This document shows positions 6,470 through 58,500 of a stretch of 64,000 nt of DNA, one piece after another. The position numbers and the translations under genes are program-made. The notes beneath the pieces are model-generated. The model worked only from the letters and a program-made list of their open reading frames with translations, searched no databases and was not told where the DNA came from. The number at the start of each line of letters is the position of its first letter. Position 1 is the first letter of the stretch. This stretch comes from Balanoglossus misakiensis (lineage: Eukaryota > Animalia > Hemichordata): positions 4,356,735 to 4,420,734 of the forward strand of contig CM082592.2 of the NCBI GenBank assembly GCA_040954595.2, given 5' to 3'.

Positions 6470-24160
<17,691 letters not shown>

Positions 24161-32576: not shown

Positions 32577-32633
<57 letters not shown>

Positions 32634-35600
32634 GCAAGTAAGCAATCAAGCAAGCAAGCAATCAAGCAAGTGATCGATCAATGATCGCCCAATCAATCAA
32701 TGTTTGATTGACTGGTTGCATGGTTGGTTGATTGTTAAGTTGGTTGGTTGAGTGAGCGTGATTAAACGGGACCAACGGGCCAGTTTTAGTGTGTAGTCAG
32801 TATTAATCGGTTCCACACGCATCAGTATAGCATATACCTACCTCGCGGAGTTATGTGGTCAAAGGCGTACGGACGGGATCTCTCGATAATCTCGAACAGA
32901 ATGATAGCAAAGCTATAGATGTCCCCCTTCTGAGTTCCGTACACGGGCGGGAAGTTCATGCGAAGAAGTTCAGGCGCAGTCCAAAGCTTGCCTATGATAA
33001 AAGAGGGTAAGAGATAATATGTTTAGGCTGATACTGAAATAGTGAAACTTGTGAGGGAATCAACATTAGCCTATCGAGTACGGAATACCATAGTTTCTGG
33101 GAAAATACATGTAATACTCGTCTGAGAGCCTGGGCAGAATTAACAGGTGGCTGGTGCGATGATGACAAACCATAAACAATGTGTTCTGTACTGTTTCCAT
33201 TCCTTTCATGGTGTTTTAGACCCTTCATGGGTGCACCTTTAAATTTTCAAAAATACCTTACCCAAATAAAGTTCATGTTCATCGGCATTAACGTTTCTGG
33301 CTTGACCCTGCATAAAGCTCTGGAGACCGTAGTCGGTGATTTTCACCACCCATCGGCTGTCAATCAGGCAGTTGGATGATTTCAGGGTGCCGTGAGACCC
33401 GTTTCCGTGTTTGCTCTTGTGCAAGTACTCCAGTCCCTATGGAGGCATTGACAGAAGATTGTGAAATTGCTGTCAGAGCCGTTACAGACGTTATATGCTG
33501 AATGGCATCATACTAGTATTTGCAGTTTTGCTGAATGCACAGATTGTATCGTCGCTAGACATTTTCGTATTTTCAGACAAAGGTCAACAATGCCTGAAAG
33601 CATCGACAATTAAACGCCCACGATTACCTAATGCGCATGTGCGTAATTTCGTGTGTACAAACATTACGTCCAATCCAAATGTTCTGCAAATTTTGCGTTC
33701 GACGCATGCAAATAGTGGACTGCCTTCGCTTCCTTTCATATTTCATGCGTACCATATAAGTAGCCTCTTGTTTTATCCCTGACCCAATTTTCTTTCTTTT
33801 CCCGATCTGCCTTATAGCAATGACTGTATACATTTTTTTGTTACCAGAGTCTCTGGTTTGGCACATGCGCATGAGACGATCGTCGGCCTTTAAACTTATT
33901 TTTGTCACCTTTATTATATCAGCGAAGAAAGAAACTTTGAAGGCACGGTCGAGTTTGATGTCGTCATTCTCCAACACATCCTGTTGAGGAGACAGAAAAG
34001 GCGTCAACATTGGAGTACTTTCCACATATTGTCAACAGTAACACTGCATTTGGCAAACATATTCGAAGGAAAATAATTCTAAGGAGTGAAAGGGCAAGAA
34101 ACGTCAGCGACAGCGGGTCATGTGATGATACCAATTCAGTTTCATTTTCTTCAAAGGTTGGTTCAACCTCTGACCTTGCCTGTGGCAAGGTTCACGTTGG
34201 GAATCATGGCCCATAAATATACATGCAATTTAAACGAAATTCTCGCTAACTTAAAATAGCTTTTATACATGATTGGAGGGGTCAAATCACATAATAATAT
34301 CAACACATTGGTATTTGCTCTGTCACAAAATTCCAGTTATGCAGTATGATCAACATCAATTTAACTTATGAACGACGACCATCTTGAAATTTTGTCGACT
34401 GCTTGAGAATTTTCTCACTCACCTAGGTAGTAAAAAAACTACTTAATTCAGTGATGGTATATGAAAATATGGGTCGGGGATATTCAATCATTGTCTATAG
34501 CTAGCAAAGTATAATGCGCCTCGAAATTTAATGCTTTTTTATTCAAAAGCACGTCACAAGGTTTTAGTACAAGGTAAGAAATAAGATTTTTTTTATCTTA
34601 CAGACGTCTCGAGGCGCATGGTACCTTGTCGAAATTTACATATAGTACCTGTAGACTTCCTTTGTGGCAATATTGCCAGACCAGGCAGAGATCGGGATAT
34701 ATAACACAAGCCCCGAAAAATATATTCAGGTTTTCGTGATTGAGTTGACGTATCTAAAGTAGAAATGTAATACACACATTTGCACACAACAGACCAGTTT
34801 CACGACCCTTGCGTGACCTATTTCAAGACGGTGTTTTTGGTGGTATGTGGCGACCGAAGTTCAATTTGTTTGTTGCGACAAACGTCAACATTCCCTGAAG
34901 ATGAGATAGAGTGGAGGGGGGTTCAATTAAAGGGAAGGGGTCGTCGCGCCGCGTGGGTGTCCCTCTTGTTGAGAATATGTCCTCCCATACCAGCACAAAC
35001 CCCACTACAGTCGCCACGACCTACTAGGATCTGCAGTTGCTGTCATGCCCAGTCTACGCTACGGTTGGCTGCTTCGTTCATTCTAAGAATTATCTTATTT
35101 GAGGGATTTGTGGATGAATTGTAATGTTTATAAACAAACAAACGCGGCGTGACGACCCCTTCACTTTAAGTGCAAGTGCAAGGTCGTCGAAGAGGTTTCA
35201 AAGAACTTTGAACTGGTGGATTCATACCAGCAAAAACAACTGCATGGTTGTAAGGTCACGTAGAGTCCATGAAAATGGCGGAGAACAAACAAACTACCTG
35301 TAGGCTCCCTCTGGCACAGTATTGCCACACTATGAAGATGCAACCGGGATCCACGCATGCGCCGACGAAATTGTTCAGGTTCTCATGATTTAACGTTCGT
35401 ATCTGGACGAGAAAAATCGCGAATTACAATGGTTGTACCATGACACAGGGCAATACGATTGAGCTTGCACAGTCCGCCATCTTCTTGTCACTCATGTGCA
35501 CTGCAGCGATTAGTTGTGTACAATTTGAGAGTTGTCAATGTTATCATAAATTAATGCATGCATTCGACACGCGAAATGTGATTTTTACCCCCCCCCCCCA

Positions 35601-38600
35601 AAAAAAAAAATAAAACTACAAAAATGTAAATTTCGTTACAATTCAATCATGGTCACTCCTACTTGCTGGCCATACAAAAATTCAAAATAGTTGGATAGAC
35701 AGATTCAGGGTGTCAAAATTGTCCCAATTTAATACATTTCACATTTCGTTAAAACGTCAATAATTTGACTGAGATAGCCCCTAGTGACCTCTATCCTGAA
35801 TGTCAAAGTTGTACGGCAATACGTGTGGGTTTTTTAAAAGAAGCCTAGTGTATTGACCTACGATGGACAGATGATGTAAGCACAGCGGACGACGATGGAC
35901 AGTCGAACTGCCCGAAAAGTGCTACGTCAATGACAGCTGATCTAAAATTTGCTCAAAATATAACATTTCAGAATATATTGGGGAAAATCGGATTTAGATC
36001 ACAACTGCGGACCAGCATACCAAATTAATCGGGCAGGTGTATTCTGAGAAGAACACATCAATTTTTTTACCAAATCGGTAGAGATTGCCCCTAAAATAAA
36101 ATTCCCAGTCGTCAGAAATTGAACAACTATGGCTCAGATGATCCCCGGTGGCACGTACACCAAATAGCAACGCTAATATGAAGAGTGGTTTCTGAGATGT
36201 CGGTTGTTGACGAGCGGAAGCTGAACACCGCCGTCATCGGACGTTGGTGTGGACAGGAAGAAATGCCTTACTGTATCGTGTTACTGTATCGTATTACAAA
36301 ACAATCTGGCATGTTACTCACAATATAAATTCACACCACTACAGTGAAATCAAATCGAGGACACGCAACTGTCTATATGGTGTATTACACGTTTACTGGG
36401 ACAGAGAGAAGAATATAGTTATTCCCTTCGGCTAAGAAAGCGTCTCGATTTACACCTTTCATAAAATCCGCAATTATCAAAACGCCTCAAGTATACACGC
36501 GGGGAAATGAAAATCACCCATTGTGATCTGTAACCATCTGCTCAGACTATGTTACCATGGCAATTGCCTCGCGAGAATTTTAAAATGTCGCTACTAGAAG
36601 TAGCCGGCTGTGGTACATGTGAAAATAAAAATTCATCGATAAAATGAGTTATTAGACTTGCAAAAAGGTGCGCCACCATGGCCTTTGTTACACTTGGACA
36701 CGCCTTTCCAACCATATACGGGCAAATGTAAATTAGAGGTGATTGACAGGGTTACCTCACTGAATTCCACCAGTACTGTGCGGTTGATTTGCATGTGCTC
36801 TTTGTTTATCTTCTTGAGCGCCACTTGCACGCCTTTGTAAATCCCTGTCTTGCAGAAATATTGCACGCTCCGCGACGTGGCGTTGCTCTCAACGCCAGTG
36901 CCGTTGGAACCAGTGGATCCCACGTTGCTTGCGCCTGGCTTATTCAGACTTCCCTGAAGAGGACGACAACAAACTAGTCAAATTTGCTCGATAAACTACT
37001 ATAAAGCACGGCAGCAGAATGATTATAGCAGTCGGTTCCCGATTATAGGTAATTACATTATTCGGCTGATGATCGCCCTGTGAGTAGCTGCAATAATTGT
37101 AGCCTTGGTCACGGTGGGCTGGTTTGATCGAGCTGCATGATGGCCACCCAGCTCGATCAAACCAGCCGGCCGCCCACTAAGGCTACAGTTATCGCACCTA
37201 CTCTGTGAGCGGCGTGAAATTCTCGGCACCGGACAATTTTCAATAGTTTATACTTGAAAAAAGCTGCCAAAATATACACACGACATGTATAACAGATATA
37301 TCCCATGTGTTAGAACATTTCCCAGCAAAAATGAGATTTTAAAATTGCCTGTGCAGGGAAACTGTACAATGGAGATACAATTGTGTAATCCTGGCACCAC
37401 CAGTCGACAGCATAAAGTACAGTGAACTTGAACTCGCGCGAGCGTACCTGACTGTTGCTACCTGTTCCACGGTGTGACCCCAAATTCAAAAGCTGTATTT
37501 CGTCATAGAGAATTCGCCATCGCATGTTTATCAGGTCTGCTTCGTACTGAAAATGCCTGAGAGGAGAAGGTTGACGTAAATGATATGCAAATTCAAAGTT
37601 GCAAAAAGGTCAGTCAGAGTTCAAGACTAATGCATGCCCTGCACCTGCAGCGACAAGAACTGACCAATCAGAAGCAACCTTACCTAATTATAATATTATA
37701 TACAATAGCTCGGTGGTAAAATGTTATAATGCAGGTGGTTCTGAAATATTGCCAACTGTTTTTAAGCGTAGATCAAGAAACCAAAGTCAACACACCGACA
37801 GCAGTACAACTACTCTGCCGCCCGCGAGTATCCGAAATCTTTACCCACCTAAAAAGATACACAAACAGAATTGTGCCGACAACAATGACCAATGCACCAG
37901 CAGCGAACGATATTATGTAGATATAGGTATCTGCAGAAAAAGGGGGAAATGAGACAACCGTTAGAAACCGTCCAGAGTTTTGTAGTTCGATTGTTGTCTT
38001 TTAATACAAACAGTGACACGCATTTGTAGCTCCTGAGCCGGCCTTGCAATGAAGGGCACAGTCAGTGACAGCTTCCAGTGGGGCGTATTGAATGGATAAT
38101 GGTCTGGGCAGTATTACGTGCGGGGGGGGGGGCACTGGTGTTTTTTTTTAAATCTAGATCCACGAAAAATAGCGACCTCCTCCATAATCTGTTCATGAAA
38201 AAAGACATTTTCGGGGTTTGTTTTATTTTCTGTACTTACAGTCCTCGCCTTTGCACAGCTCGCCGTCAAATCCACAGATTGGTGTATCGGGAGGCGCGAA
38301 CTCATGACCCACGCGCCCATCTCCCCAGCGAGGTGGTGAAATATGACGCATTATCTGCGAAGGAGAAACGCAGATTGGATCCTACATTGGCAATCTATAT
38401 CCATAGTATCTTTGATCACATATCTTGTAAATTTGAAAGTGAATCGGTGAACGGTATAAATGTTCGAACGCGCCGGTAGCTATAGGCAGAAACTGTTTTC
38501 AGTATCGTTTTATTTTTTATTTCCTCCAGTGAAGACTATTCTCTGAGGTACAAGCTGGCATTTATTTATGTCATGTATTATCGGTATAGTTTGTCCCGTT

Positions 38601-41600
38601 GTCTCCTTATCATAATTTCGAATGTGTACAAATTCGCCATTGCGGAGAAATATCCCACAATACCCTGCGTGGTACTTACACGCGTTCCATTTTCCAGGTT
38701 CAGTATTTCAGATATCTTCTCGAAGATTCCATTAGATTTCAAGTCTGTAATCCAGTAATCTGGTTCGCGGTCGCCAAACTCGTCCATGAGCAGGTTACCT
38801 GTCATCCCTTGCGAATAAGAGGGTTTGGAAGGAAGGACAACATTAAACTAGTCTGTCATTTGAAATGTCTAAGAAATTTGCATTGTATTCACGGAGGTGG
38901 TCGTCTTGAAGTCTTGGTTGTGACGTCACACGGCGGCCATTTTAATTTGCTCAGAATCCTGACAGTATGGCAACTCTGGCTGCGTTAAATAGGTGTGTAC
39001 AACTCACCGTAGTAAGGGTTTGAAGAAATGATGTATTAAAACATTCTTTCTTGTATTTAACATATTAAACTCATTGAACTTTTCTTTTTCACATTTTGTC
39101 ACTTTTTACACAAAGTTTCAGAATGACCCAGTATCACTTTAGCTAATGAACTTCCAAAAATCGGCCATCTTGAAATTGTGTCGACTATATGAGATTTTCA
39201 CCACTCACCTAGGTAGCCAAAACCTATTTAAGATAGCGAGAATATTGGCGCATACCTTACCCTTTGCACGGCGCTGCCAGAGGTAGAATTCGGACAGGGG
39301 AAGTTTTACTAGTACCCTATTCAGACTTGGACTGATGAGGGCGTTGTTCAAGTGGCTCGTAGAATTTGAATTCAATGATTTTCTGTGAAAGTGCTCAAAC
39401 TGCAATCGCACTTACCTTTGAAAAATTTCCCAGACATAGCCTGCAACATCACTTCGCCATCACGGTAATCGTTGCCATTGGATACAGTCTCGTTGAGTGC
39501 GATGACGTAAAGTATTAGGGCATCGTGGAGAAAGGCGGCGTACTTATTACCCTGCGGTAAATCAGAGATTGGAAACACGTGACAGTGCACTTGGTTCTCG
39601 CATCATATACCTGGATGTTACGTCCCTGTATAACTCTATATAGGTACGTGCAGTTTTTTCCTTTGTTATGTACTGTGTGTTTTGGGGGTGTATAACAGAC
39701 CAACCCGGTTCGGTTGCGAGCCCAAATAACATCGGCGCGCATTCCTGAACTATTTTCTTTCTCATTCCTCCGCGCGCGTTGTGTTATCCGTAAACGTTCT
39801 GTCCGTAAAGCGCATTAGCTCGCAGGCCTCATCATGGCTTTGATGGTATAGCTACGCGAAAAGCTTGCGACAATGACCAAGCGGGAACTATATCGTTGCA
39901 AATATTAAAAAAAAAAATTGTGGCTGGCCAAATTTGGCCACCCACACACGTACATACATAAATATACTTACACCTGATATTGTTCGTAAAGTTGACCCAC
40001 TCTATAAATATATAAATGCAGGAATGCGTTTTAGATCTGTTATGAATATCGGTCGCTCACCATAGCCGTGGAAATTTGGTTCCCACTGATCATGTATTTG
40101 CCGGTTTCAAGGACCCCCGTCAACAATGTCAACAGCAGAAAAGATGAACTCGACCACGACCATGACTCGACAAATCGATCTTGCCGCTGTTTGTTTTTTT
40201 GCACTGACACCGACAACGTTTTTAATGACAACTTCTGCGGATGGTCGAGAACGATTACTTGCAACGCTATCAGTCCTAGGTCTGCAACTGTGTGACACAT
40301 CATCTCCCGCAACATATTGTGCGACGTGCCAACAATTTTAGTGAATCGACGCGTCAAAAAGATCCGTCACGCGAAGATATTCAGTTCATATCTGGAGCCA
40401 TTATTAAACCATTGTTGAATCACTTTTCTTCAGACCTGACACTAAGACACTGTGCCATCAAATTCACGCCTACGTCAATTATATTTGTATTGCAATACTA
40501 TCCAGTATGGCCGATAGGCGGCCATTTTGTTACGATTTTTCATGTCCAGAGCACTTTCATACACTTCGCGACACAAACCAATATGGTCGTCCGGTGGCCA
40601 TTTTGTTTTGATTTATTGTCGTCTGGAACAATTAATCAGACATATCTGAGCCGACATTGGCATAGATATTATATTATACACGTTCAATTTGTGACATGAC
40701 ATGATCCGATATGATTTCATTCCGACAATATGCTTGCCTATCACTCAAAACTGCCAGAACCATTTTATAGTTGACTCACGGGTATAATCGCGTTTGACTG
40801 AAGAGCTATGGCGTGTTTGTGTATTTCAGTTTGCATAATAATATGTACAAATGTGGCTGCCAGGTAGCCATTTTGATAAATTAAACACGATCCAGCGGGA
40901 ACTATGTCATTGACAACAATGACATTGTTAAGCCTTGGCTACTGTCGTTGCAAATATTTAATATTTTTCCTTTTTGGCCGGCCAGGTTTGATCACCTACA
41001 CACACGTACATACATGAACATACTTACAGCTGTTATTGTTGGTAAGGTTGTGAGTGACCCATGCTATAAACAAATGCAGAAATGCGTTTTAGATCTGTTG
41101 TGAATATCGGTCGCTCACTATAGCCGTGAAAATTTGGTTCGGGTTGGGAGAAAGGAATCCCACTCACTCCCCTCCTTTGCCTATAGGTGCATGCCAAGAA
41201 ATGCGCAAAAACGTTTTCAATGTCCAATACCTTGATCCCTTCCTGTAGAGTCTGGTTCCAGGGGGCGTCCTGTAAACGACGCGCCACTTCAATTGTGAAA
41301 TCGTCGATTTGTCTGCCACTCAATGCTGCCAGCGAGACCTGGGAACATTAAAGGTACACTGGCTCTAATTTTTGTTATTTGGTCATTTGATTTTTTTTCT
41401 GAAAATGATGAATATAGAGATCAATAGAACTCGTCCAAATTTCATATTAGTTACCAGATACCTGTCCACACCCTTCAGCATGGATTCAATAACTGTACAA
41501 GTTCACACTTAAAGATGACACACTTACATGAAACACCGACTCAAATGCCTGCCTGGCTTCATCGTTTCTTCCGTCGTCTCCTAGATACGTCTCCTCCGCC

Positions 41601-43901
41601 GTGACAACGTCTTCGTCCGGCAACATCTCCACGGTGTAGTACACGAAGTCGCCGTTGGTCATTCCCATGGAGTAGGCTTCCAGTAGGAACATGCGGCGGT
41701 CATTTTTGGGCGCCGATATAAAGATAACTGAGGAGAAATATAAGACACAAGAGTATCCAACAGGCGTTCATTTAGCTGCACGGGATATTACTGGAACAGC
41801 TGCAGAAGAAGCGATGCTGTGCACGCTGTATATATAGGTACCTGCACAGCGTCTGAAATTGTTCGTTCGAAACCATCTCACGTGGAAATCATATGAGCAT
41901 CACTGATTGCTATGGTCATGCATTGTTCATGGTGGAAGCGTCAAGCTTTATGCTTTTCGCCCTGATTTAAGATACAATAAGTTGACGAAGCCCAAGAATG
42001 CAACTTCTAGCACTATTGTTGTCTGCTCTTGTAAATAAAAAAAAAACAATCGCGCGAGTTATGCATGGCAAAATGCTGTTTTTCTCTCTGAATAACCGAA
42101 CAAAATCAAACAATTTGTGAAAATGCAACCAGACTGAATCGCAGCTTTAAGCTTACTGTATATACGGTTTCATGACGCTATAACCAGATATAAAAATGCA
42201 CGTGCAAGTATATATTTTTCTGGTAGTATACTTACTGCGTCCTTCCGCCTTTGCCTTTGTAAGTATGTTTCGCACTTGCTTAATGGTAGGATTGTTGTCG
42301 TAGGCTACATAGTACGCGATGGTGATGTTGTTCTCGCCGAAAGTCTGAAATACAAAGGTTAACGATCAAACCTTTCTCCATGTGAATCCATGAGTATACT
42401 GGGTATATATTAGCATGCTGTTTGGACAAGTTAAATAATTGCATTTGACAATGCAGCTCAAATAAAGGTCGAGTGTCCCACCTTCAGAAAGGCCTTTGAC
42501 GCATCCTGATAGAGCAGAAACGTCGACGAAATCAGGACGACTCGCTTCCAGTTGTAGTTGTTCAGAATCTCGTTCAGAAAGAAGCCGAGTTTGCTGAACG
42601 ATCCCAGGGTTCGGCCCAGAGTGGTGTACGTGGCCGTCTTGTCGTTGAAATCTGGATCCGTCGCCACCCACGATATGATTGGAATATTCCAGAATGATGC
42701 CAGCTGTGCTGCTGTCATACATGCTTTGGGAAATAAATAAATAAATGAATTAACAAACAAACAAACAAACAAACAAACAAACAAACAAACAAACAAAATC
42801 ATAAATAGAAACAATAGATTAATGGAAGCTTAGAGTAAATCGGATCCGCAACTCAACAATTGTTTTCATTCTTGTCGTGAAACGTCGCAATTTCGTGTTC
42901 TCATGCACTGTAACACATACCCTATGCTATATTTAATCTAAAACAAGTGTCGTAAGGAAAACTGTATACCCTCAAAAGAAAATGAATTATCCAACAATTC
43001 GGTGAACAAAAGTTCTAGTACACGCCTAATATTGAATCGCATGGAACAATATTTTCTCTAACAGTCCTTACTTTTTCGTACCAAAGAAACTCACCTATTG
43101 AACACGGAGGGCCTATGACGACATCAACACGCTCTTCGACGTGGAGTTCCACCATGTAGCCACCGGCCTGTTTGCTATCACATGCCGAGTCTCGAGTGAC
43201 GATCCTAGAAAAGAAGGGGATTCCAATAAAAACAATTCTTTTCAAGGTATAGTTTGCGCTTCGAGAACAGATAATCCCCAAAACCGTTCGATACATCGCT
43301 ATATCAAAGTACGTGGGACGTCATTTTGATATTTTTCATGAAAAAAATGATTTGTGCGTTTTCTTACTGTGGTCAATCTCTGAAATGCTCTATTTTATGT
43401 GAGGGACTTCAAAATGTTTGGGACTTCTTTGGCTTCGTCAGTGATAAGTTTTCAACCACACCCCCCTTCATCCTCCGCCACTACAAAGTGTGTGCCCTCA
43501 CTCTTTCTGTTACCCCCAAAAAATTGCCCTGAAACAGGGAACTTTTGCGTGGGGAAACATGTATAATTCGAGATTCAGTTACTACACGTTCTAAAGCTAA
43601 TTCTCAACTCGAATTTTGTGTTATGACAATCAGGGTTTTCTAGAAAACGTTATAAGTGCGGCTGCCACGTCGACACTTACTCGAAGTCAACCTCTTCAAC
43701 CAAGTCCATAGTCTTGATGTAGTCTATGGCGATGTTCAGCGCGCCGGCGCTCGTCTGGCCGCTGAAGTTATCCAGTTCGTCGATGTTGGTCCACGGTGCC
43801 AGAAAACCAACTTTGATTTTCAGGACCGAGTCGCCTCTCTGGATGCAGACACTTAAAACCACCACCACCGCAATTAACAGAATATGTAATCGACGACGCA
43901 T
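27546..43901 (-). CDS. Receptor guanylyl cyclase paralog 2 (NPR/GC-A-like), spliced, with a duplicated kinase-homology exon
   Basis: Exons (minus): 43681-43901, 43095-43204, 42482-42723, 42236-42344, 41528-41727, 41231-41338, 39416-39551, 38680-38807, 38240-38354, 37849-37930 (TM), 37448-37556, 36756-36953, [35298-35402 or 34649-34753], 33909-33980, 33262-33436 (HGTLKSSNC), 32842-32991, 32252-32438, 31709-31849, 31100-31223, 30413-30481, 29435-29708 (VETIGDAYM...MPRYCLFGD), 28520-28614, 28124-28197, 27840-27872, 27546-27609 (...REALF*). GT-AG boundaries; phases consistent where checked. Confidence 0.94.
29282..29365. mobile_element. MITE family B, internally deleted copy
   Basis: TTAAAGGCCGACGATCGTC...GATGATCGCCGCCCTTTAA, 84 bp. 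Confidence 0.65.
32498..32700. repeat. (CCAT)/(CGAT)/(CAAT)/(CAAG) compound microsatellite
   Basis: Read directly. Confidence 0.92.
33610..33893. mobile_element. MITE family B copy
   Basis: TTAA flanks; 3' end GCACATGCGCATGAGACGATCGTCGGCCTTTAA; internal AAATGTTCTGCAAATTTTGCGTTCGACGCAT shared with the 27122 copy. Confidence 0.72.
34649..34753 (-). CDS. rGC-2 alternative exon 13b (tandem duplicate of 13a)
   Basis: 105 nt, phase 0-0, acceptor TTTCTACTTTAG, donor GTACTA; [35 protein letters not shown], no stops. Confidence 0.88.
34794..35278 (-). other. Predicted intronic RNA stem-loop between rGC-2 exons 13a and 13b
   Basis: 34794-34847 is imperfectly complementary to 35223-35278; 34927-34954 is complementary to 35142-35169 at 26/28 positions. 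Confidence 0.8.
35298..35402 (-). CDS. rGC-2 alternative exon 13a (kinase-homology domain)
   Basis: 105 nt, phase 0-0, AG/GT flanked; [35 protein letters not shown]. Confidence 0.9.
37082..37203. repeat. ~120 bp foldback hairpin in rGC-2 intron 11
   Basis: Perfect 19 bp stem 37117-37135 / 37149-37167 plus an imperfect outer stem (GAGTAGCTGCAATAATTGTAGCCTT / AAGGCTACAGTTATCGCACCTACTC). Confidence 0.8.
39061..39243. repeat. Dispersed repeat family A; other copies at ~16662-16858, ~34325-34447, ~51890-51972
   Basis: Shared core GGCCATCTTGAAATTGTGTCGAC...CACCTAGGTAGCCAAAACCTATTTAAG in introns of all three paralogs, at non-homologous positions. Confidence 0.8.
39880..41140. repeat. Imperfect ~200-245 bp direct repeat pair in rGC-2 intron 6
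   Basis: ~39880-40082 resembles ~40895-41140 (AATGCGTTTTAGATCTGTTRTGAATATCGGTCGCTCACYATAGCCGTG). Confidence 0.75.
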
Positions 43902-45014
43902 TTTGAAAATCTTCGTTTGATGTGCGACACGGTCGATCGGATCTGAAGCGAAATCGGATCACGTACGCTATGATATATCTGCTGCGAATGAAGTCGCACA
44001 ATCAAGGCTTTTGAATCGTTTTAAGAATTTGCTGGAAAGCTCGGTATTTTTCAGTCTCCTGTGACGGTCATCTCCTGTGAGATCAATGTAAAAACAGTAA
44101 TTATTCACTGAACGTTTGTTTATTTCGGGAGAAAAACAGTAATTATTCGCCCCACGTGTGTTCATCTCGTCCATAATTGACGCAGTTGGCGTCGTCGCTG
44201 GTACAGACGACCCGCTGTTCAGACTGGTTACCATGGATTTTTAAAGGCCTGCCAAATTTTCCTGCGCAATCAGATAAGCTTAATCAGCATAATTATAGGA
44301 GCTCATCGAGGCGGCAAGACATCTTTCAAAACCATGGGTTCGGATTTTGCCAGGGGCGAGGGCGGCAACGGGATGAACAATTTGCGAATCGGGGACAATC
44401 CCCCCGCGTGGTCGCGGGCAAGCCGAACTTTCTCACCCGGACAGAGAACGGTGCGCATGAATATGGTAATGGCCGTTCCTGGCAGGACAAAATGTGACGT
44501 ATATGACCTCCAAACTACGAACACCCACCTGAGTCGACACCTGGCCTTCCGGTGCACGAAGGCACGATGAAGACCAACGGGTTTTTGATTGCAAAATAAC
44601 AATTTCACCCTTCATTATTATACATTTTCCTTTCTATGTACACAGTCATGTCTTTGTTTTGTAGGATTTATGCTGGAAGATCCATCACATGAGGTGCTAG
44701 GGCGAAGCGACAGACCTTGTAATCTTTATTCGGTTTTGCAGAAAAATGACATTTTAGAAGGAATTTATAAGTACATTAATTCAACCATGGAAAACGCAGA
44801 CAGTCAGTGTCACTTTAGGTGACGTCACTGATAATGAATGACCAAGGAGGGCAGTGTATGAGGTAATGTCACCAAAGGTCGGAACTTGACTGGAAGTCCG
44901 GTTCCACCGGAGGTTGTCACCGGAGACAGCAGCGAATCAGGGGAATGCGAAAAAACAACTATGCTAAAACATCGGCATTGTAGCTAGTAGCCTCCAAGTT
45001 GCCTTCAAACTTTT

Positions 45015-45311
45015 AAAGGCCAAAAAAGTGTTTCTGGGCAGCGTGTGCGTCACTTGAATAACAGCGCGTCACCCCTTTTTTCTTGAGGGACTGTGGTTTG
45101 TGGTGGCGGGCACGGCAAACTCGAACTGTTTCAACTAGATACAAATCACTGGACACTTTGGTGCACGTGGTCAGTGACTGCGTGAACAGTATACATGTGA
45201 CTCTATTGCTAAAACTATAAAACTGGCCATCCTTCCTCCCTTGAGGGAAATAATCGCATCGCCTTTCCATGTCTTAAAGAAAGGCCTGACCAGAAACATT
45301 TTTTGGCCTTG
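45015..45311. mobile_element. MITE with TIR AAGGCCAAAAAA(G)TGTTTCTGG; related copies at ~22017-22200 and (inverted, partial) ~21675-21825
   Basis: Terminal inverted repeats; core CAGTGACTGCRTGAACAGTATACAT...AAAACTATAAAACTG...CCTTCCTCCCTTGAGGGAAA shared with the 22017 copy. Confidence 0.7.
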
Positions 45312-46304: not shown

Positions 46305-46978
46305 AGGGGTTATTACACGGATTTTGGTCGATAACGCGTCGTATTTGAGTGATGTCCGTATTTTGACGAGTTGCGCTTCGCAACGAGTCGAAATACGGAC
46401 ATCACGAGAATGCGTCGCGTTATCGACCAAAATCCGTGTAATAACCCCTTTATCATACATGCCTACCTATAAAACAGTATGATTTGCGAAAATGCGCCGA
46501 GAAAAACAATTTCAAATTTGAACCAGGCGCTGGGATCACGGCAGTAGCCATGTTGTGACGTATGACGTGTGGGCCGTAGTATAATTTTAAGGGGGTTGGC
46601 AGCTTTCATTACGATGGGCACATCCGCATTCTAAATAAACTTGTCTACGTTCTCTTTCAAAATATCATGTTAACAATTATTTCGCATTGAGAATTTCGAA
46701 GAAGTAAAAATGATTCATTCAACATGGCAAAACCGCCAGCTTTGAAAACGTTATTTCAGCTTCTAATAACCGAATTTTACAACACCCCTCTCCACTAGCG
46801 TCCTATGCCCCGTACGTCGCTCGCACGCGCAGCGAACTGTCGTGCGGCGCGGTCTCAAAAATTGGTTGAGACGCGGAGTGTAATACCGTAAAATATCGCG
46901 CTCAGTGTAATACCGTAAAATATCTTCGGGGCGAGAACAATAGAAAGTGCCAAATACAGGCGTTGCATGTATGATAAA
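46305..46978. mobile_element. Unclassified hairpin-bearing element
   Basis: ~145 bp imperfect palindrome at 46305-46449, then TTTATCATACATGC (46449-46462) inverted as GCATGTATGATAAA (46965-46978). Confidence 0.6.
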
Positions 46979-47454
46979 AGCATATTTTTCAAAATATTTC
47001 CAACAAATGAAATTATATCGTCTCAGGAGGATGCAAGCAGCCTATACTATGTTCTTTTGTCGAAATCTACAAGTGATTTTTTACAAGCTTGACTGAATTA
47101 ACTCAACATGTAGTTTATTGAAGAATATCTCATAAATATAGTATACAGTATATATACATGTACACACACACGCACACACACACACATTCATATATAGTAG
47201 TACATGTAATTAAATGTTGTAATCGGAAAAAAAACACAACTCCGTACAATTCATTTTATAGCTCTAGTTCCTCTATTGAGTATTCTATCAGTCCTGTGAA
47301 GACATCATCAATCTACTGCTATGGTTAATTTTCCTTGATGTATCACAATTGAAACTAATATATTATTGTACACGTTTCACAGGTGTTTGACTAGAAAAAA
47401 AAATCCGAATCTGAATCTGACTCAAAAAAAGACCTTGAAAGGGTCCTGGCTTGA

Positions 47455-50400
47455 TTATGCAAATTTATGCAAAGTCGACGCGGTAGACGGCTCATCAGCT
47501 GTCCCCTCCTTGTAACCGTCACCGACATCGCTGTTGTCGACGCTATTTTCCCTGTGGGACAGAAATCCGAAAAAGAGAGTGGTTTTCATATTTGCATGCA
47601 ACTTGGTGGTTGACATGTCTGTGTATCGCGACGAGGCAGAGTGCGGATGGTCTGCTGATGACACGCAAATGCATTGTGATGTTTTTGAATGCATTGTGAT
47701 TTTTTTTCAGGCACAGCAGTCGATGTCGAGCTAGCGGAAGAGAAAGACCGCAACTTGAAACATCTACTTACTGCCCACCACCGCCTTCCGCAGCGAAGTC
47801 ACCGCCGATATTCGGCCCCCTTTTGAACTCACTACAAGGAAGAAAGAACAGGAGAAAGTTAAAAGGGACCAAATCGGGGGACCACTTGCACTTGAAATAC
47901 AGGTGAGATATAGGTGTACCATTCAACGGCCATTGTGTCAGCCGTTGAAGGCAACAATATAAACTGTCCTTACTTGGATATCTTCGGAAGTGGCTTTTTG
48001 AATCCATCCTTTCCATGTAGAAAATAAGTTGCTACCATGCCCTTTCCCTGAAAAATACAGATGAAAATGATTAGAGGGAAAGTCATTTTACATATAGCAT
48101 TGTCATTTGAATCGCCGTATTCAAATTAGCTCATTACTATGCAGAAATGTATCAGTGACTATGGACGTCCATTTCCAGGACGTAGATTTAGACAAAATAG
48201 ATTCAAAGATCCTTCAGATAGGATCTTAAAGTCAAAGTCAAAAGTCACAGGAGAGAGCTGAAATCCCACCTTCACATCGATATCACCACGAGGCATCATG
48301 TGGTAACCGGCATTGCTGTCACAAAGAGCTGTGTACGACTGTTTGCTGATATGAATATGGCACGCTTCAAACCAAAGAAAGGTATAATTATTGGGGAGTT
48401 ATAATTAATTAAATAATTACTTATTTATTTATTAATTACCTGCGTATTATTTATTTATTCATTCATCCAATTATATATTTCTTAAGTTGTCTGTTTGTTT
48501 GTCTATTGGTTTGTCTGTCTGTCTGCTTATTATTCATCTATTGATTGATTGATTAATATATTTGTTTGTTTGTTTTCTCGTTTATTTATTTATTTTATTT
48601 ATTTATTTATTTATTTATTTACCCTTGCCAGTGGATTCCATTCGGGACGCAATATTGACGGTGTCTCCAAACAAGCAATAGCGAGGCATGACCAGCCCGA
48701 CCACGCCGGCCACAACAGGTCCCGTATGTACGCCAATGCGCAGCTGCAGTTTCTGTTTGGGTCGGTGACGTATCTTGAACTTAGTGACGGAGCTGAGCAA
48801 GTCCAGTGCGCAGTCGGCGATCTCTGTCACGTGGCGATGTCCGTTGCGGTGAGGCAGCCCGGACACTATCATATAGGCGTCACTGATCGTCTCGACCTTT
48901 GAAGGAAAAAAGAATTGGAGAGAGACTTGGTGTTGAAAGTTACGAACAATACATCACTGACGTTAAGTAAAACCTCTTGAAATTGACAATTGTAGAAGTG
49001 GGTTTTCTGGCAATGAGTGACCAATTCCGCACGTTTGTACTGAGCGTATATCCTTTTAGGATGTATGTTCAGTAAAATTGAAAGAATTGTCATTTCTTTT
49101 AATTGAAAGAAATTACCTTGTAGATATCATAGTTGGAAATGATGTCATCAAAGCAGCGATATAAGTCATTCAGAAAATCTACAATCTGCAAAACGAAAAC
49201 AAATCGAAATGATAATTATAAAGAATATAAACTGTGTGGAGCTTTAATTTTAATTATACAGTCCTATACCTGGAACTATGCTCGAGTGTCGAGATATTGG
49301 AACGGTGTGAACTTTCTGAGGTGAGACATGTTCGCGACGGATTCAGAACACTGTGTTTGCGATTGTCATCTTGCATTGGGGTGTGCTGTGTGCACATGAA
49401 CACTGTGAGGCGCGAATCATTCTACTCCTATTACCTGGAATGGCGTACTCTCTGACGACAATGTCGAAAACCCGACAATGTCCGAGAAGTAGATGGTCGC
49501 GTTGTCGAAGTTTTCGGGGTCCACCTTTTGGTTCATCTTCAGCTGTTCTGCAACCGTCCTAATAAAGACACACAGATGTATCTAGATGCGATTATTTTTT
49601 CACCACTACAAAGGCACATAGGCGAGTCGCCACAAATACACAACCCATCGCGCTTCAAATAATTAGTATTCATCCATCTGGAAATTGTCATAGGCGTCTT
49701 TAAAAATATTTAACCCTGTCGTGAAATTGAAATGAAAAGCGAGAAAACAGCAGCGGCGGGATGCAAATATCTAGGGACATTTCAAATGTAAAATCATGTA
49801 AGTGTAAATTGAAATCTTTGTCCAACCGCGCATCAAATGCATGCTAGCTCTTTGTCAACAAAGCTGTACACTTCCTTATCAGTTTCCCTTACGATGGCAG
49901 CATCCTGTACAACAGACGATCAGTCTTCCGTTTTTCCTCCAAGACTTGCTCAGTTCTTTCTTCAACTATCTCCTCCAAACTGGTGGAATATTTCTCCATC
50001 ATGGTCAAAATATTATCCACGATGTTAATTCTGTGGGTTAAAGGCACACTATCACCGCCAGTTTACATATCCCAATAGAATTGCTTAGGGCGTGTCAGTA
50101 ATCCTCGTGGATGGTACACTTTCTTTCACGTGGCCACCCAAGCGAAAAACTGTGATTGGATGGGTTTCTAGAGCACGATTCTGGCACCTACAGCATCGTG
50201 CCGTTAAATGGCTCAAGAATGGAATGGGTCTTTATCAGTAATTAAAACAACGACGAGAATATTGATGTTATAAAACAATCCTAGAAAGGCCCAAATGCAT
50301 AGAATTGTCTATAGTGTATTAAACTGAAATGGAGCTGGTCCATAATTATGCAACCCTCCTGCTGAAGTATAATACTCACTCTTTGCCGAGAATCGCCTTC

Positions 50401-52441
50401 AAGTCTGTCCGTATCTTGGTAAATGTCGGCCTGGCGTCGCTGTTCTCGCTCCAGCATCTGTACATCAGGTCGAGCACGCCGTGGTCAAAGTCGATCCCTT
50501 CCACGCCGATCTGTGACGTGGGTCGAAAAGGTGTACTCTCGCCATTTCGGATACGATTGACCACATCTGTAACAAAAAATAGAACACGCCGGGTGACCCA
50601 TCGACCGAATAGCGATAAACTTGCCATGTATTAGTCTGCTGAATGAAATATGGATACAAAAAAAAATTTAGTAATTAAAGCTCCATAGCTGTAACTTTGC
50701 GCCATGTTTTCCATATTTTGTTTGGTGTATCTACTGCGGTTTCTTGTTCAAATCCCTGAAATATGATGAAATGCCCAGGCTATATGTTGGCACTCGGAGT
50801 ACTGGGTGTATTATCATGCTGTTTGGAGTAGAACAGAACAGAACAGGACATTGCATTTGCTGCACAGAACAATAATACTGAAAATAAAGCCAAAAGTTAC
50901 ATCTAAGGTCCCTTTAAAAAGTCTGTGCACTTTCCCCTTTAAATGGCACAGTACTGGAACTAAATGATAACGTAGGGCCAGAAAGACAACATTCATCTAC
51001 AGATACAATCCTGACAGTTTCATCGGTGCTCACCTCGTGGAGTTATATTGTCGTACACGAAGGGCGGGGCTCGTTGGACAATCTCATACATGATTATAGC
51101 AAAACTGTAGACGTCGCCTTTCTGTGTGCCGCCCGGAGGAGGAAAGTTCATGCGAAGGATTTCTGGAGCTGTCCAAACCTTACCTGAAAAAAGAGAAGTG
51201 AATGTGAGAAAGAATAGCAAAGAGTGATTTCTACCGTAAGCACACACTTGCGTAAAATATAAGCAACCAGGCTTCAATTTGCCATTTCGTATTTTATACG
51301 GCTAACGCAATAAGAACTATTCTGGGGTTACAAGACACTTTATAGTGTTTGTAAAATAGATTCAATTCTGCAATGCTTCCCTTTAAATATTCTTCCTGGA
51401 TTTCACTGGGAACGGTGAGGGGTGTCTATACAGTAGACTTACACATGAACCTCTCCTGGTCGTCGATGTCACTCGAGGATTGGCCTTGCACAAAACTGGG
51501 CAATCCGTAGTCTGTCACTTTGACAATCCATCGGCTGTCCACCAGACAATTGGACGACTTCAGGCTGCCGTGGGCGCCAAAGCCGTGCCTGCTCTTATGC
51601 AAATATTCCATTCCCTGCGAAAAAGGATAAAGGGAGAGACTCAGGACCGGTACCGTTAGATGTTTGCCTATTGGAGATGCCCATGCATGTGCTAGGTAGT
51701 CCAAAATTGCACTGTTCTGTTTCTCAGTCTCCCAGCAAGAAACTAATATTTCATAGATCCTGGACTGGCAGAGGTTAATGACATCCGGGTCAAACATTCA
51801 GTTAATTTATATCATTGTCATCGCCCAAACCCCTAACCCACCGTTTTATCAAACCACTCACCCAACTTCCCTCCCTCCCCCCCCCCGGAGGCCATCTTGA
51901 AAATGTGTCGACCATATGACATTTTCACCACTCACCTAGGTAGCAAAACCATATTTAAGGTAGCGAGAATTGAGATCAGGTTTCAAGAAACTCAATAATG
52001 GAATTGCTATTGTTGAGAAGGCGATTAATTTTACCTTTACTGTATCAGTCATGAAGGATATTTTGAAAGTTGAATCTAGTTTGATATCATCATTCTGGAG
52101 GACGTCCTGTAAAAGACAATATGGGTTATATTCACAAACATTTGGACATATGAATAGCGTAAGATAAAAATAACGAACAACTCTTTCTCTGTGTAACAAC
52201 CAAACAAACAACAGACAGCAGTTTGGACATTGGGCTAGACCTAAGTGTCAATTACAGAACCGAATCATCCTACCTGTAAACTTCCTTTGGCACAATATTG
52301 CCAAGCTAAATAAATGCTGCCCGTCTCAACGCATGCACCAATGAAAGGATTCAAATTGTCGTGGCTCAACTGCCGAATCTAAAATAAATTTAGAAAGGTT
52401 GAATGTTAACTTTTAATTTTATTCATGATGGTGATGATGAC

Positions 52442-52509
<68 letters not shown>

Positions 52510-55500
52510 GACTGCACATACTCATACATACACAAACACACATACATACATACATACATACATACATACATACATACATACATACATACATACATACATA
52601 CATACATACATACATACATACATACATACATACATACATACATACATACATACATACATACATACATACATACATACATACATACATACATACATACATA
52701 CATACATACATACATACATACATACATACATACATACATACTAAAATAGATGCGTGCAGGTCACGTACACCAAGTGTTTTGCAGCGTGGGGAAATGTAAA
52801 AGAAAAAAGATAGAGGATCACACGACTGCTCTTAGGTTGTTCATCAATATGATGAGTTTACAAAGTTTCGACGTTTCACCCCATGATTAGGGCTTATTCG
52901 TGCATATTTAATTATAACTAACCTCATTAAACTCAAGCAACACGGCCCTGTTAACCTGAATGTGTTCCTTGTTGATTTTCTTCAGGGCGATAGAAACACC
53001 TCGATACGTGGCTGTTCTGGCGAAGTACTGCACAGTGCGATTGGATGGGGCTGAACTCTTGCCGTCAAAACTGCGCTGTGAGGTACTGGATGAGTGTTTA
53101 GACATGGCAGATGGCGAATGTGAACCCGAGGTACCCGGCTGTGAGAGAGAGAGAGGGGGGGAAGAGACAATGAGACAGAGATAGAGAGAGAGGGACAGGA
53201 AGAGTATTGCACAAAATATGATGTAACCTACTCCGAATGTTGACGTCACAGAGTAGACGTGACAAATAAGTCTACAGTTTCAAGCAGTCTCTATGAGGAC
53301 ATCGATGGGTGATATATATATGGCCAGAACATTCTCATTTGAGAGTACGGTTAGCGTAACAAAGAGTGGTAGAGGTATTTATTTGCAGGAAACATCCGTA
53401 ACAAGGGCGTGTATAAGAGGTGTGGTTTATCCAAATTGGTGCAAATAATATTCATGCCAATATATGATGAGACATTCAGTGTTGCACCATCAGGTATTGA
53501 CGAAAATTGATACAGATTGAAGGGATATAAAACGTGTGTAAATATTCGTTCTGTATACGTGATTTAAAGTAGATCGCAAGGCGAATGGTGTGAGGTTAGA
53601 TCAAACTGGCATTGTTATGTTTTATCGCATCAACAAAAATACTGAATGTAAATTTCACGCATGTGTCGAGGAAATTTGTCAATATCTTACATGGCTACCC
53701 TTTTCAAGAGAACCGAATTTTCCAAAACTGCCGGAACCTCCAGAGATGAACCGGACCTCTTCCATGTGCACCTTCCATCTCATGTTCAACAGCTCGCCTT
53801 CAAATTTGCTGCGCCTGAAACATAGATGTAAAAAACTAGTTAGAATATTGTCATTTTCCTTATGTTTATATATATTGTTTATCACTTAATGTTAAAGTGA
53901 ACCGACACCTTCCTTGTAGAGAGATTCTAATAAAATCTTTGTGAAAAACATGAGTGATTTGCGTCGTTTTTATTCACTTTCACTTATCGCGCAGCAGCGT
54001 AGCGTCGATCTCGATATGCAGCGTGACGTCACAAACTAGTCACCAGTAGCAGACGCCACCGTGCGCACGCTAACGTACACAGACAGTTGACATGGGTGGC
54101 TGCCTCGCAAGTGGGAGCAAAAACAGAGTTGGCAAAAACACGGCGAAAGGTTTTATAAAAGTTCCCGACCCTTCAGGGACAGTCAAAATGCAAATCGAGC
54201 TGGAAATTGGGTGTCAAACATTGGCATATTATTTCGGTGCTTATTGCTGAGACAGATGATACTTTTGCTTCGGAAATGTTCGTGTTCAACTAGGCCCTAT
54301 ATCGTGAAGCATATTGCAAAAAAAAACTACACAGCAAAAATTGTCGAAACAGCCGGGGCTCCTGATTACCTTTGATCACCATATGACGAAACCGATTTTT
54401 TGGCACTGTAAATCAAAACTCTGATCGGAAGAAAGTAGTGTGGCGGAAATAGGCCTACTAGTGAACACTGTGTTTGTCGCGTACCCAAGCTGTGAATGCA
54501 TCGCAAAACCATTTCCAAAGACAAAAACGACCACCTCTACCATCTGGAAGCACCACAGATGTACTCGAAACATGACAATCGGAGTTTCTGCCTCCCTTTG
54601 ATCAACAAAGCCGCATCTTTTCACAGCTGTTGATCAACGTAAAGGATGGTAGACACGTGTGGTAGACATTTTCGCGAGAGTGTCAATAGGTTTACTTTCT
54701 ATTCTTTTGGGAAATCACGAGGGTGCCTATTATGACATGGGTGACTAAATGTCAAAAATTATCGCATGGCTTCGTGATATGTCGTTCAAGTCTTTATCTA
54801 ACGGCCTTGTCAAGAAATCTATTTCATGGCAGCACCGGCATTCCTTGACAGTAGAAATAACTTCGCATTTACCGCAGCGCAGCTACACCATGAGCGTGAT
54901 GAAAGACGAAGCCGATCACTCTTCTCGATCGTCTTTGCTGTCTACACTTGCCTCTGTACTATTGGAATCAGTTTCACTTGAGTCGCCTACCATCTCATCG
55001 CTGCTGTATTCGGGTTCGTACAAAAATCCGACGATATCTTCGTTTGAAAACTCCATATCGCGTGGTCGTTTTTGTCTTTGGAAATGGTTTTGCGATGCAT
55101 TCACAGCTTGGGTACGCGACAAAAACAGTGTTCACAAGTAGGACTATTTCCGCCACACTACTTTCTTCCGATCAGAGTTTTGATTTACAGTGCCAAAAAT
55201 TCGGTTTCGTCATATGGTGATCAAAGGAAATCAGGAGCCCCGGCTGTTTCGACAATTTTTGCTGTGTAGTTTTTTTTTGCAATATGCTTCACGATATAGG
55301 GCCTAGTTGAACACGAACATTTCCGAAGCAAAAGTATCATCTGTCTCAGCAATAAGCACCGAAATAATATGCCAATGTTTGACACCCATTTTTCAGCTCG
55401 ATTTGCATTTTGACTGTCCACCGAAGGGTCGGGAACTTTTATAAAACCTTTCGCCGTGTTTTTGCCAACTCTGTTTTTGCTCCCACTTGCGAGGCAGCCA

Positions 55501-58500
55501 GCCATGTCAACTGTCTATGTACGTTAGCGTGCGCACGGTGGCGTCTGCTACTGGTGACTAGTTTGTGACGTCACACTGCATATCGAGATCGACGCTACGC
55601 TGCTGCGCGATAAGTGAAAGTGAATAAAAACGACGCAAATCACTCATGTTTTTCACAAAGATTTTATTAGAATCTCTCTACAAGGAAGGTGTCGGTTCAC
55701 TTTAAGGACAGCGCATAAGAGCACTTTTCTTGCGGTAAAAAGACATATCATCGATCGTGAATGTTTTACTTACCGGTATAACCAAATGCCAAGGGTTGTA
55801 ACCGCGCCGGCCACAATAAAACTGGCGGCAAAGGCAGCAACGTAGATGGATGCATCTAACAAAAATAGACGTGGCTTTAGACTGTCATTTTCTCGTACGA
55901 ATGTTTTTGCTGAAAGGCCGACAATCGTCTCATGCGTATGTGCCAGAACAGTATATACTATACTTACAGTTATTTCCTTTGCACCCCGAAAAGCCGCACA
56001 CGGGCGTGTCCGGCGGGGCGTACTGGTGCCCGACCTTGCCACCCGGCCACCGAGGTTCCCGAAGCTGGCGAAACACCTGAAACAGAACATTGAAACAGCT
56101 TTCAGTCCAGCTGCGCGCGTCCCTCCCACAGAATGGTTCGAACGCGTTGCTTCGGACTCCCGCCAAATAGGTCATCACAGAACATGCAGGAGGTCGTTGG
56201 TGACCGTCTCTAAGGGCAGTTTATTAATTCAATAGTCAGTGTGTCGACCTCATTTCTATAGACTGCAGTCTATAGAAAGTTGTTCAAACTAATAGCTCGG
56301 TGATTGGAAAGTATCCGCGACCATGGACAAGTCAAATGTATGCGTGCTGTACTGTTAATGGACCAGTGAGTCAACACCTTATGTATATACACGTGTCATT
56401 CTTTCAGCATCGAACAAGATGCGGCCAGTGAAGATATTATAAATCTGATTGTTATCCCCAAATAACGCCTGTTGTACCCCAATAATGCCTCATCTTACCC
56501 TTGTACCATTATCCAAGTTCACAACTTCAGAAATCTTCACAAAGACGCCGTTCGGTTGCAGATCTGTGATCCAGTAATCCGGCTCCCGGTCGCCGAATTC
56601 GTCAATCAGGACATTTCCGGTCATCCCTGCAATAAGTTTTGACAAATTTAGTGAGATAATGTTTGCAGAAACGCTGTGTTCATAACTAATATAATGGTAA
56701 CATTTAGCATAGCAGAACTATAATGTGTTAATCAAGAACAATATTATCGCCTATACTATTAGTTCAATGTAATGCACTTTAGCACATCAATGTTGTGTAA
56801 TCTATATAAATCAATTTGATTATCTGAAAACTAATGTTTGTTGATTTTTGCAGTTTCCAGTATGTTTCACACCATGGCCAATGGTTTTCGTGTAATTAGC
56901 AAGAAAGATTACACAACTTGCGATTTTTAAGAGAAGCATAGTGGTAAAGGATTGTACCAGCTCTGAAGCTCACTATTATATACCTCAAATTTTAGACATC
57001 TTGCCAATCACAAATTTTTACCCTAGGCCAGGCAAATTAAAAAGACACGTCTTTTTATGCACTGTATATGGCCAAATGATAATTAGTGGTTACCATTTAC
57101 CATGGAAACCTTCAAATGCCGTAGTTATGGTTACCAAGTGATCTGCAGCGGGCCTCCCTGTGGTGTATCAAATCAAAACCGCACTATCGATCGTTGGAGC
57201 AGATTAATGTACAATTCTTTAAAAAACCCAAATGTCAACTGAGAGACACTTTGCTACCTTTGAAGAATAAACCGGAGAGAGCGTTTGCGATAATCGTGCC
57301 ATCTCTGTAGTCGAGACCCTGTGACACTGTCTGATTTAGAGCAAGCACGTAAAGAATGATGGCGTCGTACAGGAAGGGGGCGAACTTATTGCCCTGGAAG
57401 AGAGAGAAAGGCATAACGAGCTCGTCTTAGAAAACGGTGAAGAGTATATACGACAAGTCGGTGTCCAATCCTGTCAGAGACCCTCATTTTGCGTGATAAC
57501 TGGAGCCCATCAAAACTCAATCTGGTTAAAATCAGGTGTAGGGTACGCCGACGTCTTTTACTTACACGGTACGGTATTCTTAACGGTCGAATGTATGGTA
57601 TGATATTATACCGACGAAAACTACCAAGATGGGACGCAGGCATAGTGATCGTAAAGGGGTTCGCATAGTGAATGTCGCAAGACAGACGGCTTTACCCAGC
57701 TCGGTTGCCCCATTTTGATGACTTCAATGATAACGGGCTAGAGTAACGATATAATGAGGGTCTCAGACAGAACTAAGCGTTTTCACAGAGGAGCCACTGC
57801 CAACCACAATTGAAGGTAATTCTCGCTCACCAGTCAATGGGTACTAACATCGCCTCTTGCGTCACAAAAAGACAATTATCTGACAACATTTCACATTGCA
57901 ACCTTTAAATGCCGGTGACAGTGGCTCTTCTGGGACTGCCACATGCGTGTATAGTACCTTTGAAGAATTTATTTCGCATAGCGTCGAGCATAACCTCGCC
58001 ATTTCTATAATTTTTCTGAGCAGCGACAGTTTCGTTGAGGGCGAGGATGTATAGTATCATAGCATCATAGAGGAACGCAGAATACTTGTTGCCCTATCAA
58101 AAGATAAAGGGTCGTCAAATTCACATTGTAGAAAAAAAATACATGTATTATGTATATATTTCCGATTCTCACATTCGCTTTATATATTACCTCCCAGAAG
58201 AAAGCCCAGTATAACGTTTCCCAGGTATAATCTTTGATAATAAGTACCTGACTGTATTCCTGTCATTTAATTTCCTTGAAGTAAAAGAACATGGAACTTA
58301 TGCAGTTGTTATTAATTGTGAATTTAATTAAAGTCACCAAAATATATGTATGTATTCCAAAATTGAAATTCGGTGAGCGAATATAAGTTCGCGACGTACC
58401 CCCTCCCCTCCATAAGTTTATGGACTTCGCATTTTGAACTTCAGCAACAATCTTGGACAGTCCCGAAGTTGTCGGCGATAGGCCAAGTTTGGCCAATCTC

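Follow-up and report, generated by a model that had tools for sequence, protein, structure and literature searches.

The window analyzed here is a 64,000-nucleotide (nt) stretch of Balanoglossus misakiensis DNA that carries three receptor guanylyl cyclase genes in tandem, rGC-1, rGC-2 and rGC-3. Coordinates are window positions unless a survey locus is named, and the genes, exons and pairing elements described lie on the minus strand. Two of the genes contain a tandem pair of twin exons, 7a and 7b in rGC-3 and 13a and 13b in rGC-2. Judged from the sequence, we are confident that these exons are real and probably mutually exclusive. As the main mechanism of exon choice we propose a competing central-docking switch, in which an RNA element between the twins would pair with either of two partners; we give this explanation an even chance of being correct. 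The competing-structure design is known from human ATE1 and is apparently undescribed for receptor guanylyl cyclases.

Exon models were built by protein-guided alignment, and their boundaries were refined to AG/GT. Exon 7a (57958..58093; 136 nt; residues 326-370; donor GTACTA) and exon 7b (57258..57393; 136 nt; donor GTAGCA) are identical at 24/45 amino acids and 80/136 nt and are separated by an intron of 564 nt. Exon 13a (35298..35402; 105 nt; residues 587-621 within the pseudokinase's N-lobe; donor GTAGTT) and exon 13b (34649..34753; 105 nt; donor GTACTA) are identical at 23/35 amino acids and 64/105 nt, with 544 nt between them. The initial annotation of this DNA, which had reported both pairs, was right in its coordinates, intron lengths and donors. 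Within each pair the twins match in length and phase and have intact splice sites, which identifies them as homologous tandem copies; the AG/GT sites are intact, the pyrimidine tracts are normal, and about 40% of bases differ between the a and b copies. When 15 exon groups were compared without gaps against the complete minus strand, exons 7 and 13 had four copies and each of the other 13 groups three, with true copies scoring at least 89 and the next-best hits at most 30. The other paralogs thus have a single corresponding exon, as had been annotated. The best protein relatives of exon 7a are from acorn worms (Glandiceps 78%, Saccoglossus 60%).

Branch-specific changes favor third codon positions on all four exon branches (Fisher p 0.0003-0.016), and the single-copy paralog exons behave alike. 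Because the changes on each branch fall mainly at third positions, this excess argues that 7a, 7b, 13a and 13b have all been kept as coding sequence by purifying selection. It also bears on the explanation that one copy of each pair is silent or recently abandoned, with a single protein made per gene. In line with such a loss, the listed hemichordate proteins include no a/b isoform pair, the variants within a cluster being distinguished by other changes in annotation, and one of the two exon-8 copies at locus L020 of the survey described below looks decayed. An open frame alone is weak evidence of use because a neutral exon stays stop-free 28-42% of the time in a substitution-only simulation. 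The third-position excess on every branch speaks against a silent copy, as do the exact lengths and phases, the intact splice sites and the normal pyrimidine tracts, and in the annotations of the rGC-2 orthologues the exon is a-like for Saccoglossus and b-like for Glandiceps (a weakly supported assignment). We therefore regard a silent copy as very improbable.

A G at donor position +5 is absent from all four alternative exons and present in 50 of 61 constitutive donors (Fisher p=0.002); among the 11 constitutive donors lacking it, one probably has a wrongly placed boundary, and without that one the count would be 10/61. The weakness of all four donors had been noticed in the initial annotation and holds in this comparison. 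The a-only and b-only forms of both genes are open across all modelled exons, and where at least five isoforms from three genes had been claimed, the exon models support five possible receptor isoforms. Co-inclusion of 7a and 7b, or skipping of both, shifts the frame and leads to an early stop, at codon 373 for 7a+7b. This frameshift could act as a structure-free safeguard for rGC-3, in which nonsense-mediated decay alone could police co-inclusion. In the case of exon 13 all four inclusion combinations are in frame, so that double inclusion would escape decay and an active block would be needed.

According to the duplex calculations, the support for competing pairing is stronger for rGC-3 than for rGC-2. 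The predicted central docking element D of rGC-3 (57782..57819) pairs with Sa (-40.3 kcal/mol) or with Sb (-40.6 kcal/mol). Sa (57902..57936) begins 22 nt past the 7a donor; Sb (57107..57163), the second predicted partner, begins 95 nt past the 7b donor, and its pairing with D would loop out 7b. A further helix of intron 7a-7b, stem II (57472..57770; arms 57770-57732 and 57511-57472), is compatible with both states. In a duplex scan from exon 6 to exon 8 the three highest-ranking helices were stem II, Sa:D and D:Sb. When D was compared with 4258 windows of the whole minus strand, Sa and Sb were the best two partners, and the energies of Sa:D and D:Sb were reached by none of 300 shuffles. The segments following the two donors are themselves homologous: the intron block 57074..57121 matches 57914-57867 at 73% over 48 nt, the exons themselves sharing 59% of bases. 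None of 100 shuffles matched this similarity, a result unique among 42 intron pairs. Sa and Sb overlap the duplicated segment with their 3' parts. In a blind screen of 38 introns D:Sb reached a z of -5.5, the second most extreme of 456 arm-flank tests. Under thresholds chosen after the fact (both helices <= -28, z <= -2.5), only the two twin-exon introns pass, the rGC-2 matches involving arms other than the U:X helix described next.

The predicted central element of rGC-2, X (35252..35292), lies just past the 13a donor and pairs with U (-34.4 kcal/mol) or Y (-33.6 kcal/mol). The predicted upstream partner U (35462..35502) ends 60 nt before the 13a acceptor, and its pairing would loop out 13a; the downstream partner Y (34792..34820) stops 39 nt short of the 13b acceptor, and two of the four TNA branch-point-like adenines lie within it. 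Nested inner stems of intron 13a-13b (34828..35243; arms 35243-35208/34864-34828 and 35172-35142/34954-34924) occur in both states. Among the 4258 windows of the minus strand, U was the second and Y the third best partner of X, behind a microsatellite region. The U:X energy was reached by 2/300 shuffles, which is marginal given about 12 arm-flank choices. In ensemble folding the expected pairs amounted to 19 for U:X and 14 for X:Y, and X was split between U and Y at both 37 and 20°C. Blocking one competitor in the folding moved the pairing to the other in both genes. A second cross-exon match, of the inner arm 34954-34927, was set aside as probably caused by a poly-G run near 35600.

Several results weigh against a competing switch. 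In rGC-3 the balance of Sa:D to D:Sb in ensemble folding depends on the window folded (19.0:0.8 vs 10.5:7.4), and D:Sb fell under the reporting threshold at 20°C. Chance cross-exon partners reached z<=-2.5 in 19/456 blind tests (15/38 introns); an earlier run of the screen gave 7/228 tests at z<=-2.5, with U:X at only -2.1 and D:Sb at -2.3. U:X was not among the arms picked by the blind screen. U and Y are not significantly similar, their introns aligning no better than 93/100 shuffles, and neither overlaps a pyrimidine tract. The stems have no strand bias in a low-power test (12 G.U vs 9 A.C oppositions; the antisense strand folds equally well), which fits plain DNA inverted repeats and also mostly Watson-Crick RNA stems. 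Finally, when introns between duplicated exons were folded for related receptors from other animals, 11 of 12 did no better than shuffles, so duplicated exons can persist in the receptor family in the absence of such stems.

Since in each intron one arm has two competing partners, one of them on the far side of an exon, the data point to an ATE1-like two-state switch. The complementarities were computed as duplexes, and we infer from them all the steps that would lead from pairing to splicing. In the X:Y state of rGC-2 the whole intron would close, the branch region of 13b would be partly covered, and the 13a donor would come to lie about 30 nt from the branch region; by analogy with ATE1, 13a would then be joined to exon 14. 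By the same analogy, the U:X state would loop out 13a and lead to the use of 13b. In rGC-3 the D:Sb state would loop out 7b, so that 7a would be used, whereas in the Sa:D state the 7a donor, crowded by the hairpin at +22, would be drawn toward the 7b branch region, favoring 7b. The weak donors may make the exons responsive to intron structure. Messages with both 7a and 7b, or with neither, would be frameshifted and removed by nonsense-mediated decay. At the protein level rGC-3 would come in two forms that differ in the extracellular domain, and rGC-2 in two that differ in the pseudokinase.

The initial annotation had attributed exclusivity in both genes to one shared steric design, with stems starting 19-25 nt past the donor and spanning most of each intron. 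In its static form this explanation states that the folded intron puts the upstream donor too near the downstream branch point, that proteins choose the exon, and that the cross-exon pairings are incidental. Folding against 100 shuffles gave a z of -2.5 for intron 7a-7b and -4.3 for intron 13a-13b. This measure was rejected as a discriminator because 5 of 39 control introns had z < -5 (12 shuffles each), several of them via evident inverted repeats. Among 41 introns of 300-720 nt, consisting of the two twin-exon introns and the 39 controls, 7a-7b and 13a-13b ranked first and second for base pairs with p>0.8 and a span>=100 (71 and 66 pairs). These confident pairs enclose 90% and 81% of the intron, again the top two of 41. 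In the models the distinctive trait is therefore spanning coverage, not fold strength. The confident stems begin 19 nt (7a-7b) and 26 nt (13a-13b) past the donor, close to the positions annotated, and stop 73 and 39 nt short of the acceptor, but intron 7a-7b consists of two serial hairpins instead of one spanning stem.

Position -25 was used as a stand-in for the branch points. Between the donor and this position 32 nt are unpaired in rGC-2 and 84 nt in rGC-3 (median graph distance 49). According to two sources, joining is blocked below a donor-to-branch-point distance of about 50 nt (PMC5740500, PMC7969005). The shared steric design thus agrees with rGC-2 and is marginal for rGC-3, and graph distance was discarded as a discriminator since its median is below 50 in 13/39 control introns too. 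A static block gains from the top rank of both introns for spanning pairs, from the 32 unpaired nt of 13a-13b and from the in-frame double inclusion of exon 13, which would evade decay and so need an active block; locus L034 of the survey, with three exon-7 copies and a first intron of 64 nt, represents a size-based version of the same block. Set against these points are the 84 unpaired nt of 7a-7b and the short distances in controls, and such a block leaves Sb, its homology to Sa, and U unexplained. As the whole explanation we consider it unlikely. Within the competing-pairing explanation it may represent one of two states, and in our models the steric state annotated initially is likewise one of two, not the entire design.

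The two twin-exon introns are unrelated to each other, as had been annotated by eye: 47/200 shuffles align as well. This is consistent with separate origins. Neither intron has another copy within the 64-kb window, and an Rfam scan of 33900-59500 gave no match. A further explanation derives exclusivity from splicing factors and the weak donors, with nonsense-mediated decay added in the case of exon 7, and takes the stems to be decayed foldback or transposon remnants without a role. It would account for the missing G.U bias and the equal antisense folding, for the frequency of inverted repeats in these introns (the 5/39 controls above) and for the stop of 7a+7b, and it is in line with the duplicated exon 8 and 9 introns elsewhere, which have conserved motifs and no folding signal. 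For Drosophila Rdl exon 3, both structure models failed on test (PMC13762713). On the other side, the top two ranks of 41 would arise by rank in about 1 of 820 cases, on a measure chosen with the finding in mind; the introns are not repeated within 64 kb; and D has two colinear partners, one behind each duplicate. This explanation appears rather unlikely to us.

For the competing-pairing explanation the closest known system is ATE1. In the human gene the element R3, located between exons 7a and 7b, pairs with R1 or R4, each upstream of one exon, as proven by compensatory mutants; disruption of R1R3 increases 7a, disruption of R3R4 increases 7b, and a mutated R3 leads to more double inclusion (PMC7797038). 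The likeness comprises the duplicated exon pair and the order of U, X and Y in rGC-2, which is that of R1, R3 and R4. In silico, one intervening element is complementary to two flanking ones over overlapping bases, with strong support for D and marginal support for X. In ATE1, R1 and R4 resemble each other, whereas U and Y do not significantly (93/100 shuffles) and the Sa/Sb region does (0/100). The competitors here do not abut 3' splice sites or pyrimidine tracts, U and Y ending 60 and 39 nt upstream, and rGC-3 would be a donor-side mirror image with Sa and Sb on the donor side; U and Y are predictions only. A duplication model by Ivanov and Pervouchine (PMC6071210) lets an exon be duplicated together with one stem arm, which yields two selectors for a single docking site. 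Arms duplicated in this way are what Sa and Sb resemble; in the model, as outlined there, the docker is placed to the left or right of the cluster and internal introns show no tendency toward mutual pairing, whereas here the docker lies between the twins. Bidirectional pairing in Drosophila srp exon 4 (PMC4691838) relies on two distinct pairs that have no site in common, according to PMC6071210, while one element is shared here. Mutually exclusive exons of the distant-branch-point type, e.g. OGDH 4a/4b, have in common with the steric design that joining is blocked when the donor lies within about 50 nt of the branch point; according to PMC7969005 they need a long AG-free zone. We judged distant branch points unlikely for the exons studied here because their AG-free zones measure just 25 nt (7b) and 52 nt (13b), not most of the intron. 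The two-exon cluster of Drosophila Dscam exon 17, reportedly analyzed by Yue et al. in 2013, is said to combine steric hindrance with RNA structure; the effective distance fits rGC-2 only (32 vs 84 nt).

To place the twin exons in the wider receptor family we surveyed metagenome contigs, which yielded 103 related loci, of which 80 were kept. Exon 8 is present in two copies at 10 loci among the 37 with any exon-8 match (L001, L006, L010-L013, L018, L020, L046, L048), exon 9 in two copies at 4 of the 80 loci (L043, L047, L053, L067), and exon 7 in three copies at 1 of the 80, L034; these counts leave aside flags at L060 and L022/L079. Many loci are near relatives, so the counts correspond perhaps to three or four independent duplication events. 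At L034 (1673-3514) the three tandem exon-7 homologues are 154 nt long and their three donors lack +5G. A search with 7b showed that protein P0023 reads through two tandem exon-7 homologues; P0043 also reads through two copies. When the 12 inter-copy introns were folded, only that of L011, which has an extra palindromic insert, beat its shuffles, and a consensus fold of four exon-8 introns of other animals gave short helices only (-14 kcal/mol). Exon twinning thus recurs in this receptor subfamily, and the spanning stems are particular to the window. The tandem duplicates of exons 8 and 9 have purine-rich, strongly conserved acceptors and conserved intron motifs, with no folding signal; they are candidate protein-controlled exclusive exons. 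Nine loci flagged as exon-7 duplicates were dropped, as their hit lengths read as one exon split by an intron. An exon 7 homologue seemingly split by an extra intron was seen at L035-L037, L039, L040, L042, L044, L046 and L048, with close relatives unsplit, which suggests recent intron gain or loss. The scallop receptor isoforms P0012, P0015 and P0016 have a common C-terminal part and three different N-terminal extracellular halves, another way in which this family varies its ectodomain.

In an exon-13 tree of 35 columns, 13a grouped weakly (79/88) with the exon of rGC-3 and those of Saccoglossus, and 13b joined rGC-1 and the rGC-2 orthologue of Glandiceps. Exon trees cannot date the duplications because neither a clade of 7a and 7b (p-AU 0.14; 45 columns) nor one of 13a and 13b (p-AU 0.17; 35 columns) is rejected. 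The rGC-3 intron 13-14 is faintly similar at 52251-52192 to the Y region upstream of 13b (26/1000 shuffles, uncorrected), perhaps what is left of a b exon that was lost, and the rGC-2 model of P. flava has no exon 13. The weak tree grouping, the intron similarity and this model together hint that the exon-13 pair may predate the rGC-2/rGC-3 split, with the b copy lost from rGC-3.

By alignment to NPR-A, exon 7 falls within the extracellular domain and exon 13 belongs to the pseudokinase, in agreement with the initial view of one switch outside the cell and one in the pseudokinase. The differences between 13a and 13b cluster ahead of a shared WQYC motif and align by eye with GC-C residues 528-544, which, according to PMC10400071, lie in the Hsp90 channel. 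By this analogy the two isoforms could differ in pseudokinase regulation. In a more speculative reading, which we offer as a possibility short of probable, the subfamily would be a hotspot of exon twinning across bilaterians, the cluster would twice have built a toggle between twins (ATE1-like on the acceptor side, its mirror image on the donor side), and the exon-13 switch would rewrite the Hsp90-threading stretch and tune chaperone/ATP control. A donor-side mirror-image toggle was not found in the literature searched. To our knowledge, splicing switches based on competing structures have been proven for few genes, most of them in insects. If true, two neighboring candidates of about 1 kb, an acceptor-side one that keeps the frame and a donor-side one that shifts it, would provide a small test bed for duplication-born exclusivity.

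A literature search with thin coverage of subscription journals, on exclusive or duplicated exons of guanylyl cyclases and on hemichordate cases, listed no description of the present arrangement. Among the papers listed there was also no tandem exon pair for NPR-A/GC-C-like receptors, the human exon-cluster supplements of PMC5740500 lying outside its scope. The three genes are assigned to the receptor guanylyl cyclases by ANF-receptor, pseudokinase and cyclase domains in one chain, based on the exon-by-exon match to P0001-P0003, the Pfam domains of these proteins and the tree. rGC-3 (47455..62112) is the orthologue of Glandiceps P0002, which matches NPR-A over its full length (E 9e-212) and has the same Pfam domains as NPR-A and GC-C type cyclases. 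rGC-2 (28120..43901) is the orthologue of P0011, P0001 and P0005, and rGC-1 (9206..24160), used for comparison, has a single exon 7 (17397-17262) and a single exon 13 (14163-14059); the 3' ends of all three genes are approximate. In a quick tree of 17 proteins, rGC-1 and rGC-2 were sister to Ptychodera flava proteins and rGC-3 grouped with P0002, which puts the source animal near P. flava among the acorn worms.

A predicted hairpin follows exon 13b (34505..34628; arms 34628-34609 and 34524-34505) and begins 21 nt past its donor. Intron 10 of rGC-3 contains a 1.8-kb element (53892-55705) with 644-bp terminal inverted repeats that are 98% identical, TTAA flanks and a broken cysteine-rich frame, and resembles a non-autonomous Kolobok-type transposon. 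In intron 6 of rGC-2 a 200-bp direct duplication (39893-40082 and 40945-41140; 80% identical) is present, in which no exon-like copy was detected. A short dispersed repeat occurs in introns of all three genes (34376-34446, 39162-39231, 16777-16846 and 51892-51948).

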